Positions 23,006-44,455 of a DNA stretch of 64,000 nt are shown here, piece after piece; within the stretch, counting starts at the first letter, position 1; the number at the start of each line of letters is the position of its first letter. The stretch comes from Planctomycetota bacterium. Lineage in GTDB: Bacteria > Planctomycetota > UBA8108 > SXIK01. The stretch spans positions 4,352,001 through 4,416,000 of the forward strand of contig CBDCXR010000004.1 in the NCBI GenBank assembly GCA_965223845.1, read 5' to 3'. A program made the translations under genes and the position numbers. The notes under the pieces are model-generated. The model was not told where the DNA came from. It worked only from the letters and a program-made list of their open reading frames with translations, and searched no databases.

Positions 23006-24103
23006 TCACGATCCTGGCGGCGGCAGGTCGTACGGAGCGATACCGTCTGAAAGCCGAAACGCCACCGCGAACGGAAACTCGCCCTTGGGCGCATTGCGCG
23101 TATAGCGTCCCTCGCCCCAGTAGTCACCCTTGACGACGACGTCGAAGCGAGCGAGGCGACCGTTCTCGACGAGGACGAATCCGAGAATCTCTGCCTTGTA
23201 GCCTCGATCGCCGGCAGCGCTCTCGAAGTGGACCTTGCCGGTGAGGCGTCCCTCGTCCAGCGTGATCTCGAACGACTTCACCTCGCTCTTTCGCCAGCGG
23301 CCCGGTTCGCCACGAGTGTTGTCGTTCAGCAGCGGAGAGATCCGCTGCTTCAACTCGTCGGGCATCCGCCCGCCCGCGAGTGCCGCGATCTCTTCCTTCG
23401 CGATCCAGAGATGATCGCGCGCGAGCGACTGCTGATGGATCCGTCGAAATCGATCGTCCGGCGGTTCGTATCCGCCCAGCACACGCGACGTCACGAGAAC
23501 GGCCTGGCTGCCTTTCGGTAGGGACCACAGCGGCCCGGCGCTCTCGTGGCCCTCCAAGATCTTCGGCAGACCATCCTTCGGTTCGTGCGCGTCGAGCGCG
23601 CGTTTGAGCAGCTTCCATGCCGCGTCCCCCCTCACGGTATTCGAGTAGGAGAGCAGTTCGGCGGATGGAGTAAAGAAGTAGAGTCCCTGGTTGTAACCGC
23701 TCACCTTTTCGCCGGTCTGGCGGACGAGCTTTTCGAAGAGGACGTACTCCACGTCCTTGCGTCGCCGATGGTGATGCTGGTTCACCGCGACGCTGACGAA
23801 CTTGCTCTTGATCTCTCGCACGAACTCGGCGTCGCCAAAGACCGTCACGCGGTCTGTGATGCCGTTGTTTCACACGCACCCGAGCGGGTGACCGGAGCGC
23901 ACGACCATGAAGACGGGCTTCTTCTCCCGCGAAGCTTGAACGCAAGCCTCCGCGAGCGAGGTCTTCCACGCGATGCTGGACCAGCCCTCTTCCTTGGGGG
24001 GACGCAGCTTCTCGTGGATTCTCGCGAATTCCTCATCGTCGAGCTTGGTCGACGGTTCGAGCGCGGTCTGTCCGAGCAGAATCAGAACGGCGAGCGTGGT
24101 CAT
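23006..24103 (-). CDS. Candidate selenoprotein: thioredoxin-like fold with CxU motif (365 aa; Sec78 encoded by TGA at 23870-23872)
   Basis: ORFs 23870-24172 and 23006-23848 share a frame, separated by one TGA plus 7 sense codons: KPVFMVVRSGHPLGCV-U-NNGITDRVTVFGD. A hairpin follows the TGA. ATG at 24103 with GGGAGA RBS. Confidence 0.75.
23828..23863 (-). promoter_or_regulatory. Putative bacterial SECIS element
   Basis: On the minus strand, stem AGACCG / CGGTCT with loop CGTGA; apical GUG starts after a 21-nt spacer from the UGA; imperfect outer GGC/GCC stem. Confidence 0.6.
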
Positions 24104-24340
24104 GGCGGTTTCTCTCCCGTGTCGAGTTCGACGGCTCAGATTCGTCGTTTTCGAGGTCCATTCGTCCCGCAACGTACCCCGTTTCCGCTGGGTGGGTTAT
24201 TCTCGTTCAGTCACAGAAGAAAGTCACGAGGTGCGATCGACCGCCGCCCGTTGCGCCGGACACTCTAGCCGTCAGCGCCCGCCCATCGGGGAGAACGATC
24301 GTCACCCGCTGAGAACACGCCCCCGCCGGAATCCTCAACC

Positions 24341-25690
24341 ATGCGATCGCTTCGTCTCTTTGTCGCTGCAATCCTATCGTTAGTCGATCCCATCTCGACC
24401 ACGGTCATCGGGGCGCCGCAGGAGCCAGTTGTTCTGAATGACAACGGAGGCTGGTGCTGGTTTCAGGATGAACGCGTCATCGTCGTCGGCGATCTTCTCG
24501 TTACCGGATCCGTCGCCACGAAACGCGGAACCGGTGGCGACCGGCGCGCGGGGAACATCGAGGTGGCCGCCTACGACCTGAAGACGAACGCGCCGCACGG
24601 TGTCGCAGTTCTGAACGAACGACTCGAAAGCGACGACCACAACGTCCCGGCGTTTCTCGTTCGGCCGGACGGACGACTCCTCGCCGTCTACGCGCGGCAC
24701 GGAACGGATCACCTGGTCCGATTCCGCATCTCGACCCGACCGGGAGATCCGCTCGAGTGGGAGCCGGAGCGTCAGCTCGATCGAAAGACGAGCGTCACGT
24801 ACTCGAACCTCTTTCGACTCGCCGCGGAAAACCATGGGAAGGGTCGGATCTACAACTTCTACCGGGGCGAAGGATGGAACCCGAACTTCGTCATTTCCGA
24901 CGATGACGGGAAGACGTGGACCTACGGCGGGCGACTGGTGAAGTTCAGCGGACGCCCGTACCTGAAGTACGCGTCCAATGGTCGCGACGAGGTCCACTTC
25001 GTCACGACCGAGCACCATCCCCGAAACTACGACAACAGCATCTACCACGGCTTCGTGCGGCGAGGCGTCGTGCACGCCTCGGACGGAACGCCGATCAAGA
25101 ATCTCTCGGAGGGTCCGATCGTTCCCTCGGACGCGACCCGTGTCTTCGCTGGGGACAGAGACCGGGTCGCCTGGCCCATCGATCTCCATCTCGACGCCGA
25201 GGGCCGGCCGCGCATCGGGTATTCCGTGCAGATGAACGAGGATCCACGTGATCTTCGCTACCGCTTCGCGCGATGGGATGGTTCTCGCTGGAACGATCAC
25301 GCCATGGGCCGCGCCGGATCGGCGCTCTACCTTAGGGAGTCCGACTACAGCGGCCTGATCGCGCTCCATCCGGACGACCCGGCGACCGTGTTCATCGCCG
25401 CCGACGTGCACCCCGTCACGGGCGATCCGCTCGTGAGCAAGGCCGACGGTCGACGGCACTACGAGATCTTTCGCGGCCGAAGTCCGGACCGTGGCGCTTC
25501 TTGGAGATGGTCTCCGATCACCAAGGATTCGACCGCGGACAACATTCGCCCGATCGTGCCGCGCTGGAAGCCGGAGCGAACGATCCTCCTCTGGCTCCGC
25601 GGAGAGTATTTGACGTACACGGACTACGATCTCGACGTCGTCGTTCTCGTCGATCCCAAACCACTCGCGATCGAGGGCGGCGAACGCTGA
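24341..25690 (+). CDS. BNR-repeat (BNR_4-like) beta-propeller protein, secreted
   Basis: GGWCWFQD, DDHNVPA, Asp-box SDDDGKTW, RPYLKY; signal peptide. Confidence 0.8.
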   Translation: MRSLRLFVAAILSLVDPISTTVIGAPQEPVVLNDNGGWCWFQDERVIVVGDLLVTGSVATKRGTGGDRRAGNIEVAAYDLKTNAPHGVAVLNERLESDDHNVPAFLVRPDGRLLAVYARHGTDHLVRFRISTRPGDPLEWEPERQLDRKTSVTYSNLFRLAAENHGKGRIYNFYRGEGWNPNFVISDDDGKTWTYGGRLVKFSGRPYLKYASNGRDEVHFVTTEHHPRNYDNSIYHGFVRRGVVHASDGTPIKNLSEGPIVPSDATRVFAGDRDRVAWPIDLHLDAEGRPRIGYSVQMNEDPRDLRYRFARWDGSRWNDHAMGRAGSALYLRESDYSGLIALHPDDPATVFIAADVHPVTGDPLVSKADGRRHYEIFRGRSPDRGASWRWSPITKDSTADNIRPIVPRWKPERTILLWLRGEYLTYTDYDLDVVVLVDPKPLAIEGGER

Positions 25691-40988: not shown

Positions 40989-41512
40989 TCCATCTGCGTT
41001 ATTCCCACTGAGCGCCCAAAGGGTCGCGGAATCTCAGAAGATTCTCTGGCCCATTGTATTCCCGTGCTCCACGAGGCCGGAGCGACCAGTTGGGTGCACC
41101 CGATCAGTACGAGACTGGTGACGTTCGCAGGCTCGTTTCGCCTCCTCGGGGCGCCTCTCCACTCTGCCAAACGCGAGTTACGGCCACTCGAAACCGCTGC
41201 GCACGGCTCGAGATCGACAGGGAACGGAGGGTCTCGCTCAAAGCGCGAAGTCGCGGCATGCGCACTTTTCTTTCGAGTGAGCGAAATCTTTCGGCGTAGC
41301 TCGGAAGTCTAGCGATCGCGCTCTCAAGCGAGCGACGCGCAAGGGGCGGGATGGAATTCACGCCGCGAGAAAGGGAGAACTCGAACGACCGGTCGCGGGG
41401 GTACGAAAGATTCCTCACTCCGCGCCATTTTCCCCACCGCACCAATCCTCGAGCTGAAGAGCGTTCTCAGCCGATTCTCTATGGTAGGCTGACGTCGAAA
41501 AGGTGTTCGGTG

Positions 41513-44455
41513 ATGGTGTACGAAAACCCGCGCGAGCTGACTCGATCTGTTCCGGTGTGCCGCCACGAATGTTGCGGCACGGTAGGTACGCTCTGCCGCT
41601 GGTCCCGACGCATCGCCGCGCTCGCGCTCACGTTCGCCTTCCTCGTCTTCCTAGCGAGCTGCTCGCGATCTTCGAGCGGTCCGGGCGCGGGACTCGATCC
41701 TCTTCCGATCGCCGGCGGCGTGACCGAGATGGAACGCGTTGAAGAGCTCAGTGAGACGGTTGCCAACCGATTCATCGAGTTCTCGGACAAGGTTCGGAGG
41801 CGCGACTTCGACGCCGCGGCCGTCTACCTGGGCGAGGATTTTCTCGGCACTGCATTCGGCGCGTGCGCGGCTCAGCCCGCCGAGACGCTTCCGGTCGGCG
41901 TGACGAGAACGCGTTTCGATCCCGCGCCGGCACGCGCCGAGCCGGCGAACCGAGCGACTTTTCTCCGCTCGCTTCGCGAGTTTCTCTCTCCGCTCGAGTC
42001 GATCGAGTACGTCTTCTTCAAGACGCGCGGCGCCGAGTTCACCCCGGATGCGAACCGAGGAGTCCTCCGGATGACCGTGCAGATCATCGGCCGCGAGCCG
42101 GGCGACCGTCCGTTTTCACTGAACGGCGCCGCGGCCGCGGAGGCGCTCAAGGTCGGCGAAGCCTGGGTGCTCCGGCGATTCGTACTCAAGAGCTTGAATG
42201 TCACGCGGCGAGATTCACCCGTGTTCACGGACGTGGCGACTTCGGCCGGAGTCGCGTCGTTCGGCCCGCGACTGGGAACGGGCGACAACACTAACTTCTA
42301 TTGGCGGGGCGCGGCCACCGCCGATGTCGACGGCGACGGGTACTACGACATCTTTACGACGACCAGTCGGCGCGCGTGGCTCTACCGCAACCGAGGCGAT
42401 GGCACCTTCGAAGATGCGACCGGCGGATTCGGCATCGACGCGCCGGCGAACTCGACTGGACCGCTCTTCTTCGACTACGACCGGGACGGCGATCCCGATC
42501 TCTTCCTGGGCTACGTCGGCTGGAGGGTCGACGGCGTGCCCCAAGGACAGTCGCTTCGCCTCCTTCGAAACGAGGGCGGAAAGCGATTCGTCGACGTGAC
42601 CGACGCGGTCGGTCTCGGAAACCAATACCTTGAAGCGTTCAGCGCCTGCGCGTCGGACGTCGACGGAGACGGTTGGCTCGACCTCTACATCTCCGCCTAC
42701 AACCGACTCGACGCCGAGTACCCGAACTCCTGGTACCGGGCGACGAACGGCAGCCCCAACGCGCTCTTTCACAATCGCGAGGGACGATTCGTCGACATCG
42801 CCGCGGAGGCCGGAGTCGCGGGAACGGGATGGAGCTACGCGGCATCCTTCGCCGATTTCGACGAAGACGGTGACGAGGACCTCTACGTCGCGAACGACTA
42901 CGGTGACAACTCACTCTACCGAAACGAAGGCAGTCTTCGTTTCCGCGACGTCGCCGCCGAGCTCGGCGTCCTCGATACGGGAAACGGGATGGGAGTGACT
43001 TGGGGCGACCTCGACAACGACGGGCGCCTCGATCTCTACGTCTCGAACATGTCATCGTCCGCCGGCAACCGCATCCTCTCGCGGCTTCCGCGCTCCGGCG
43101 GGCCGGGCTCCGAGCGGTCGGAGGGCTCCAGCTCGCGGCACTCGAGCCGCGGCGTACAGAGCACACTCGCGAAGCTCGCTGCCGGAAACACGATCTTCCG
43201 GCAGTCGGGTGCGCGCTTCGAAGCGCTGCCGGCCGAGAAGGGCGGGATCGGCGCGTCGTGGGCCTGGTCTGCGGCCCTGCTCGATATCGACCTCGACGGT
43301 CGATTGGACATCTACGTCGCCAACGGATTCATCTCCGGCGACTCGCTCAAGGACACATGAAGCGTCTACTGGCGCCACGTGGTGGCGTCGAGTCTCGCGG
43401 ATGACGCATCGGCGAATCCCGCGATCACGACCGCGAAGATCGAGGCCGAACGCCCGGGAAGCGATCGCTACAAGCAGGACCATATGTCTCTCATCTTCCA
43501 GCGCGGGCTTTCGTTCAGCGGTTTCGAACGGAACAAAGTGTTCTTCGGCGGATCGGACGGCGGGTACGTCGACCTCTCGGACGTGTCCGGCGCCGACACG
43601 GATGCCGACGCGCGAGCGGTTCTGGTCGCGGATTTCGATGACGACGGCGATGCGGACCTCTTCGTGAACGCGATCCAGCGCGAGCAGCACCTGCTTTATC
43701 GAAACAATCTCGACGGAGTCGCACCGAACCGCTTCGCGAAGTTTCGGCTGCGCGCCGCGCGAGGTCATCCGGACGCGATCGGGGCGATCGTGCGCGTCCA
43801 TCGAGGGAGCGTCGTCCAGGCGCAAGTGCTCACCTGCGGCTCCGGCTTCGAGTCGCAAAACGCGCTCGAGCTCATCTTCGGGCTCGGGGGCGTCAACAAG
43901 GCCCGCGTCACGGTTCGCTGGCCCGGACGCGAAGAAGAGGATTTCGGCGAGATCGAGGCCGGTGGTCGCTACGTCCTCACCGAAGGCGCGGGAAAGCCGT
44001 CTCCCTTCGCGGCGAAGACGTTTCGGTTCGTCGACCCGGCTCCGAGAGGCGTCAAGGTACGACTCGGAGACCGTCTCGGTTCGCTCGCCCTCAAGACCGT
44101 GACGGGCGAAGACAAGACGCTCGATCTCACGCAGGAGAAGCGAAAGACCCTGCTCAATTTCTGGGCCACGACCTGCGCCTCCTGCGTGGCGGAACTCCCC
44201 GAACTGGCGAAACTTCACACCGGCGAGACCTACCGAGTCATCGCGGTGAACCTGGATCCACCGAGTCAAAGAGATGCGATTCTCGAACTTTGGTCGAAGC
44301 TCTCCCTCCCGTTCGACACGTTTCTCATCGGCGACAAAGATGCGGATCGCCTCTTCGACGTCGCTCGGATGGGCATTCCGCTCTCGATCGTCGTCGGGGC
44401 CGACGGACGCATCGAGCGCATCCTTCAAGGGCGCATTCGCGAGGGCCAGCTGTAA
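41513..44455 (+). CDS. Candidate selenoprotein: lipoprotein with FG-GAP propeller, ASPIC/UnbV domain and C-terminal TlpA-like CxxC domain (980 aa; Sec616 encoded by TGA at 43358-43360)
   Basis: ORFs 41351-43360 and 43379-44455 are in frame: NGFISGDSLKDT-U-SVYWRHVVASS. Six DxDxDG..D blades lie before the TGA and the seventh after it. Lipobox LASC; NFWATTCASC. Confidence 0.75.
43362..43407 (+). promoter_or_regulatory. Putative bacterial SECIS element
   Basis: Stem ACTGGCGCCAC-GTG-GTGGCGTCGAGT plus outer GCGTC/GACGC; apical GUG starts after an 18-nt spacer from the UGA. Confidence 0.6.

Follow-up and report, generated by a model that had tools for sequence, protein, structure and literature searches.

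An in-frame UGA in a planctomycete gene probably marks a thioredoxin-domain selenoprotein family distantly related to selenoprotein N

We analysed a 64,000-nucleotide stretch of DNA from a Planctomycetota bacterium (the window) and found that a minus-strand gene, 24103-23006, carries a single internal TGA at codon 78 which, to judge from its recurrence among relatives, is almost certainly read as selenocysteine (Sec, U). The gene represents an uncatalogued family that occurs in 93 of the 301 sampled genomes of the phylum and that gene callers split in two. The evidence as a whole makes it probable that one frame with a conserved Sec codon encodes an exported thioredoxin-domain protein whose selenol attacks oxidised thiols in the periplasm, and that this protein is a distant relative of selenoprotein N (SelN) with its domains in reversed order.

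The frame begins with the ATG at 24103 (...KPVFMVVRSGHPLGCV), meets the TGA at 23872-23870 and continues for 287 codons to a terminal TGA at 23008-23006 (Table 1). An earlier sequence-only reading had described a short ORF ending at TGA whose frame runs on for about 287 codons, exactly as we see it. The codon lies in the context VVRSGHPLGCV-TGA-NNGITDR, which gives the motif GHPLGCV-U-NNG. Contigs from three public DNA runs span the stretch with 0 differing letters (at most two samples from one study, possibly the source itself), and the TGA is therefore no assembly slip.

Table 1. Features of the selenoprotein gene, in window coordinates
Feature	Position	Strand	Basis
Whole gene	23006..24103	-	365 aa with TGA as Sec; one-piece Cys homologues 355-387 aa
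Putative ribosome-binding site, purine-rich GGGAGAG 8 nt 5' of ATG	24112..24118	-	sequence; function inferred
Short hydrophobic leader, residues 1-15, LAVLILLG	24059..24103	-	Kyte-Doolittle 9-residue maximum 2.7
N-terminal helix (23-32) and predicted thioredoxin-fold domain (39-177), DsbD-gamma/AGR/DsbH/UAS type	23573..24037	-	
Active-site segment G71-H-P-L-G-C76-V-U78-N-N-G81-I-T-D-R85	23849..23893	-	conservation in 60 Sec forms
In-frame TGA, likely Sec codon U78	23870..23872	-	same site in 34/35 loci; Cys in 31/31 full-length homologues
SECIS-type hairpin: upper stem AGACCG/CGGTCT 23855-23839, loop CGTGA 23849-23845, lower stem	23827..23864	-	
Conserved Q139-G-L-Y142, start of third thioredoxin strand; SelN has F-P-V there	23678..23689	-	alignment register
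C-terminal beta-rich domain, residues ~190-365, possibly homologous to luminal beta domain of SelN	23009..23536	-	model, profile comparisons, element order

TGA stands at the motif in 34 of the 35 loci examined, the remaining locus not spanning the site. It also lies inside 138 of the 148 matches listed from the 301 phylum genomes, with TAA or TAG in none (count by eye). Of the 10 listed matches without a stop, five do not span the site, and the five that we inspected comprise one Cys-x-Cys form, three with neither Sec nor Cys and one SSP411-type thioredoxin. Cysteine homologues, which the sequence-only reading had proposed to seek, do exist: among the best 120 database matches, 31 are full-length and have Cys at the site in every case, and 89 are without the N-terminal part. 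The nearest named loci belong to Planctomycetaceae and Pirellulaceae MAGs (67-69% identity). Two paralogues in the same genome carry TGA at the same site; one, G000:C4:74173-75700 (-) (L020), reads GHPLGCT-U-NNG and has an extra C-terminal domain, and the other, G000:C4:335215-336366 (-) (L021), reads GDPLDDC-U-TF, nearer to the SelN motif.

The genome also encodes selA, selB and selD (all over cut-offs) and a tRNA-Sec(UCA), machinery whose absence would have counted against the earlier reading. Among the family-bearing genomes, selA is present in 91 of 93, compared with 221 of 301 overall (compared by eye), a comparison of related genomes that are not independent observations and for which we give no P-value. 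The two selA-less exceptions are G142, which has the form with neither Sec nor Cys, and G246 (84% complete), which has a TGA form. The overall figure is itself far above what older planctomycete surveys would suggest. It is extremely unlikely that the TGA is a true stop between two genes or in a pseudogene, or is read as another residue: although public collections do store the halves as two proteins (77 and 280 aa) and a GTG start directly follows the TGA, the interruption is always TGA, always at the seat of the Cys and co-occurs with selA, it would cut the thioredoxin fold after the first strand, and homologues end with TAA or TAG where this gene ends with TGA, so that TGA works as a normal stop elsewhere.

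Other recoding candidates were seen in passing. A second hidden selenoprotein candidate lies in the window at 41351-44455 (+), where 669-aa and 358-aa ORFs share one frame across a TGA at 43358-43360 (GDSLKDT-U-SVYW), with a 9-pair hairpin and FG-GAP-like repeats. Elsewhere, the gene at G000:C4:5875542-5876906 (-) for a Trx7/PDZ-type protein contains TGA in frame at two places (R-U-V-P-U, against R-C-V-P-C in a paralogue), and G000:C4:2830225-2832876 (+), with TGA at 2832589, encodes a DsbD-like protein with a C-terminal thioredoxin U-T-N-C. ARAGORN reported two CUA-anticodon tRNAs (labelled Pyl; G000:C4:1643846-1643919 and 6791124-6791203) and two tmRNAs in the same genome, all of which may be false calls. 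The 15-kb contig G000:C1 has 48% G+C, compared with 65% for the main contig.

Past the TGA, the sequence-only reading had noted a perfect 6-bp stem with loop CGUGA, and it is present (AGACCG/CGGTCT), 15-31 nt 3' of the TGA with its loop at +21. It fits the bacterial SECIS model as quoted in PMC13188914 (loop of 3-9 nt, G in the first two places, 16-37 nt after UGA). Taken by itself the hairpin is weak: its z-score is -2.1 over 45 nt and 0.2 over 63 nt, a comparable hairpin under a loose model is found after 128 of 1293 TGA triplets when all six window frames are counted, and a 6-pair hairpin arises in 179 of 2000 synonymous recodings of the same peptide. Across 60 distinct family genes, drawn from 85 loci, a model-fitting hairpin occurs in 59; 200 synonymous recodings gave 20.1 on average and never more than 30. 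The hairpin is significant only across the family and not in the single gene.

We ran the covariation test that had been proposed for the hairpin. Across 26 aligned genes, the 7-pair stem has 23 cells changed on both sides, compared with 9.7 in shuffled alignments (0 of 500 as high), while stems slid along the alignment give 4-7 such cells; two of the five measures do not stand out from the shuffles (52 and 137 of 500). The compensatory pairs include TTGAC/GTCAA, TGGAC/GTCCA, TCGAC/GTCGA and GGAT/ATCC, and lie for the most part at third codon positions. The gene's own subgroup keeps the CGUG loop but, compared with the majority of members, places it 2 nt farther from the UGA and in a different codon phase, a shift that points to selection acting at the RNA level.

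We examined a structure model of the protein (mean pLDDT 81, pTM 0.78), which resolves the leader, helix and two domains of Table 1; the fold neighbours of the first domain are DsbD-gamma-like, AGR/ERp18, UAS and DsbH domains. The stop sits where the sequence-only reading had placed it, at the redox motif of a predicted thioredoxin fold. Confidence is low in the active-site loop (pLDDT <50 at residues 72-88), and its geometry is therefore inferred from alignment. U78 aligns with the first Cys of the SSP411-type CxxC and with the U of the DsbD UxxC of proteins from the same genome, and it is predicted to occupy the first, attacking Cys seat of the CxxC helix in a site of the form U-x-x-G.

Across 60 Sec forms, conservation is G71 58, H72 54, P73 58, C76 49, G81 54 and R85 60. 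Position +3, where a resolving Cys would stand, holds Gly (54), Ala (4) or Ser (2), and position +7 is Arg throughout. G140 and Y142 are invariant, as is Q139 in a 36-row alignment, and by alignment the cis-Pro seat holds N138/Q139-G140 and no Pro. The protein had been called a CxU selenoprotein; the second word stands, but the first appears not to define the family, since just 49 of 60 Sec forms and 28 of 31 Cys forms retain the upstream Cys at -2, which, judged by this conservation, is dispensable. In L051 and L140 the U is directly followed by Cys (GHPLG..-U-C-N).

A short hydrophobic leader was also part of the earlier description, and we find it to be common: on a crude measure whose windows differ between forms, hydrophobicity reaches at least 2.0 in 56 of 60 Sec forms and in 0 of 30 measurable Cys forms. 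The leader is short, without a basic N-region, and is likely an export signal or anchor. In a quick tree, the Cys forms make up one branch within the Sec family, adjoining the gene's own subgroup; from this arrangement Sec looks ancestral, with a single switch to Cys accompanied by loss of the leader.

The comparison with SelN began from a lead only: the top ESM Atlas feature match for a Cys homologue is a 'Selenoprotein N' cluster (0.91, 197 shared features). A short SelN motif fetched 55 metagenome loci, mostly eukaryotic genes or transcripts and three bacterial-looking ones, where 'eukaryotic SelN' is our label for sequences that fit by membrane helix, EF-hand, SC-U-G and coding hairpin, with no named database match. 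L085 (601-1899 (-)) is flanked by bacterial-type genes, eight more proteins end exactly at DDQSC, one of them from a planctomycete MAG, and a SelN profile matches 8 of the 301 phylum genomes at E <1e-30, 7 with TGA within the match. Bacteria therefore encode Sec proteins in SelN's own domain order. This set consists of L074, L085, L094, L143-L149 and P0122-P0129, the L-numbered loci being without the EF-hand; its genomic genes have an in-frame TGA and a SECIS-type hairpin in 7 of 7 cases, with an identical CGUG loop in 3. The SelN profile finds no such protein in the window's own genome, and in the literature we found no description of bacterial SelN-order selenoproteins.

Two further SelN-like groups were noted. 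One is a thioredoxin family (G000:C4:3949274-3950245 (-), L151-L158, L161 and L162) with the motif G-x-L-x-G-G-L-U-S-A-G-H-S-L-R, which lacks Cys around the Sec, differs in its C-terminal part and carries a hairpin with the loop CGUGAC; the other is a branch formed by L159 and L160 (LG.LDEEFC-U-ANGRFMR).

The thioredoxin domain of the window family is closest to that of the bacterial SelN-order proteins (98.4%, score 93) and also matches eukaryotic SelN (94.9%, score 53); the profile alignment sets Sec on Sec, with G at +3 and R at +7 common to both. The likeness could instead reflect a shared fold, the protein being a real selenoprotein of just another thioredoxin_7/DsbH-type family with a C-terminal domain unrelated to that of SelN. 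Same-genome thioredoxin_7, DsbH and DsbD profiles score 57-68 against the family, higher than eukaryotic SelN (53) but below the SelN-order proteins (93), which score 73-84 even when cut to 3 sequences, and eukaryotic SelN itself scores only 28-32 against generic thioredoxin profiles. The best Pfam leads are likewise DsbH (PF03190, 13.4 bits against a cut-off of 27) and Thioredoxin_7 (PF13899, best E 0.00097 among 36 members), neither of which reaches its gathering cut-off. In a quick tree of 167 columns, eukaryotic SelN groups with the bacterial SelN-order proteins (support 92) and the window family forms a separate branch (91), yet U-x-x-G-x-x-x-R and the loss of the resolving Cys are common to both.

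The second domain bears on the same choice. Its description as uncharacterised was apt, as it has 0 family matches. In the model, the thioredoxin domain begins about 40 residues from the N-terminus and the beta domain lies behind it. Compared with the bacterial SelN beta domain, the C-terminal domain matches at 61% (E 8e-5, 117 columns; 38% in the reverse direction), and its score of 37.0 exceeds the maximum of 22.9 in 60 block shuffles (60 of 60 lower). Two independent models give the same order of strand-helix-strand-helix-helix-five strands, in register with that alignment. The match is lost with two other alignments (0.7% and 0.3%), as the shared-fold explanation would have it, and against eukaryotic SelN alone it is 0.2-0.6%. 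On balance, homology of the two beta domains is slightly favoured, and we regard the generic-family explanation as rather improbable.

The window protein is not a SelN orthologue. SelN likeness had been put forward as loose and confined to the SCUG region; at the level of thioredoxin profiles it proves stronger than that, but the SCUG motif is absent (GCV-U-NNG here, SC-U-G in the SelN-order genes). There is no EF-hand either, with no Pfam match and no room for one between leader and thioredoxin domain.

We next consider the eukaryotic coding hairpin. Judged by eye, 25 of the 28 folded sequences show it beginning 6 nt past the UGA, with its centre at about nt 26; of the three that deviate, two enter an intron or stop within a few codons. 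In L074 and L085, the loop of the SECIS-type hairpin lies at nt 25-28, with the pairing register one base off that of the eukaryotic hairpin. The SelN coding hairpin is possibly descended from a bacterial SECIS-type hairpin. A broader scheme, which we offer as a tentative conjecture with the odds somewhat against it, would make the window family a domain-swapped branch of a large and unrecognised SelN superfamily, derive eukaryotic SelN from the Sec-using bacterial SelN-order branch and regard its SRE as a SECIS remnant. If this were true, the chemistry and structure of the myopathy protein, both unsolved, could readily be modelled on the soluble bacterial forms, among them those that naturally carry Cys.

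The family likely acts as a periplasmic selenol oxidoreductase, in the manner of a SelN-type thioredoxin oxidoreductase with a single Sec. SelB would bind the hairpin through its CGUGA loop, 21 nt after the UGA, and deliver Sec-tRNA; without selenium, only the 77-aa stub would be made. The leader would direct the protein across the inner membrane. There U78, predicted to lie at the start of the active-site helix, would attack an oxidised thiol as selenolate, leading to reduction or rearrangement of oxidised thiols in the periplasm. With Gly81 in place of a resolving Cys, resolution of the mixed selenenylsulfide would fall to Cys76, in members that have it, or to an external thiol, and Arg85, His72 and Gln139 likely shape the site. 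The C-terminal beta domain may pick the substrate or partner.

The main chemical rival is a peroxidase-type role, with the selenol serving as a one-Sec peroxidase or small-molecule reductase (of peroxides, sulfenic or mixed disulfides, or halogenated aromatics) and the beta domain holding a small substrate. The absence of a resolving Cys and a cis-Pro and the presence of invariant Arg and Gln are marks of peroxidase-like thioredoxin folds, and the site has them all: no resolving Cys in the helix, a dispensable Cys76, no Pro in the cis-Pro seat, and an invariant Arg and Gln nearby. We nevertheless judge this role unlikely, as the fold neighbours (DsbD-gamma, AGR/ERp18, DsbH) handle disulfides and are not peroxiredoxins or GPx, and SelN is described as a reductase of a protein, SERCA, in the ER lumen (PMC12839072), a role that parallels the thiol oxidoreductase proposed here.

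The genomic neighbourhood gives little further indication of function. After a gap of 210 bp downstream comes a co-oriented DUF1553/DUF1549/cytochrome ORF and then a DUF1501 gene, as the sequence-only reading had observed. Its suggestion of a redox link finds no support, and it is very improbable that the selenoprotein is the dedicated redox partner of this cytochrome c/DUF1501 pair: beyond the shared strand and short gap, both products are likely exported and three other loci have such a neighbour, but the resulting 4 of 55 loci (window included; flanks mostly 1.5 kb) compare with a background of 6.1% in the genome, where DUF1501 alone has 71 matches. Distant loci share no neighbour except further copies of the family itself; tandem copies occur in L024, L041 and L140. 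Upstream, a BNR-repeat protein gene (24341-25690 (+)) diverges from the selenoprotein gene across 237 bp.

No Pfam or NCBIfam model (June 2026) reaches its cut-off for the family; NF041199 scores 10.5 bits against a cut-off of 300, and NF041383 has a best E of 0.0055 in 5 of 36 members. The motif is absent from the 119 prokaryotic selenoprotein families of Table 1 in PMC13188914, for which the model comparison covered the Pfam and NCBIfam rows. We found no description of the family in the literature, where supplements (BSepDB Table S2, bioRxiv files) and subscription papers might contain one. SelN has been described as animal-specific (PMC2375036) and later as rare in algae (PMC7539508), and the list of prokaryotic families common to eukaryotes in the 2026 review is without it (PMC13188914). 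Bacterial relatives, some in SelN domain order and others leaderless, readily expressed natural Cys forms, would allow direct tests of SelN's substrate chemistry, of what the myopathy residue R469 does and of where the SelN recoding hairpin came from.

Compared with known systems, the family shares its thioredoxin fold with Thioredoxin_7 (PF13899), DsbH (PF03190), DsbD-gamma, AGR/ERp18 and UAS domains, but it has no CxxC and no Pro in the cis-Pro seat, scores below the Pfam cut-offs, and has a longer active-site loop and an extra C-terminal domain. The catalogued thioredoxin-like selenoproteins (Trx7/PDZ NF041199, VPGUxxT NF041383, TsoX NF045809, SaoT NF040730 and Sec.1 CxU; Table 1 of PMC13188914) likewise have Sec in a thioredoxin fold and a SECIS within the reading frame, but they differ from it in motif and architecture. 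The bacterial SelN-order proteins share the in-frame TGA, the SECIS-type hairpin, an N-terminal hydrophobic segment and the split at TGA in databases; unlike the window family, they have the SelN domain order and a [DE]SC-U-GSG motif, and they group with eukaryotic SelN.

Eukaryotic SelN differs from the window family in its motif (WGxLDDQSC-U-GSG versus GHPLGC[TV]-U-NNG), in the position of the upstream Cys (-1 versus -2), in having F-P-V where the family has Q-G, and in carrying its beta domain before rather than after the thioredoxin domain; the EF-hand belongs to SelN only. In both, Sec occupies the same seat in a thioredoxin_7-type domain that lacks a resolving Cys and has Gly at +3 and Arg at +7, the latter corresponding to human SelN R469, which is mutated in myopathy (PMC3541580). 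Both also have a helix before the domain, a coding-sequence hairpin just past the UGA, possibly the same beta domain, and a place in an oxidising compartment, the ER lumen for SelN and, as inferred here, the periplasm for the window family.
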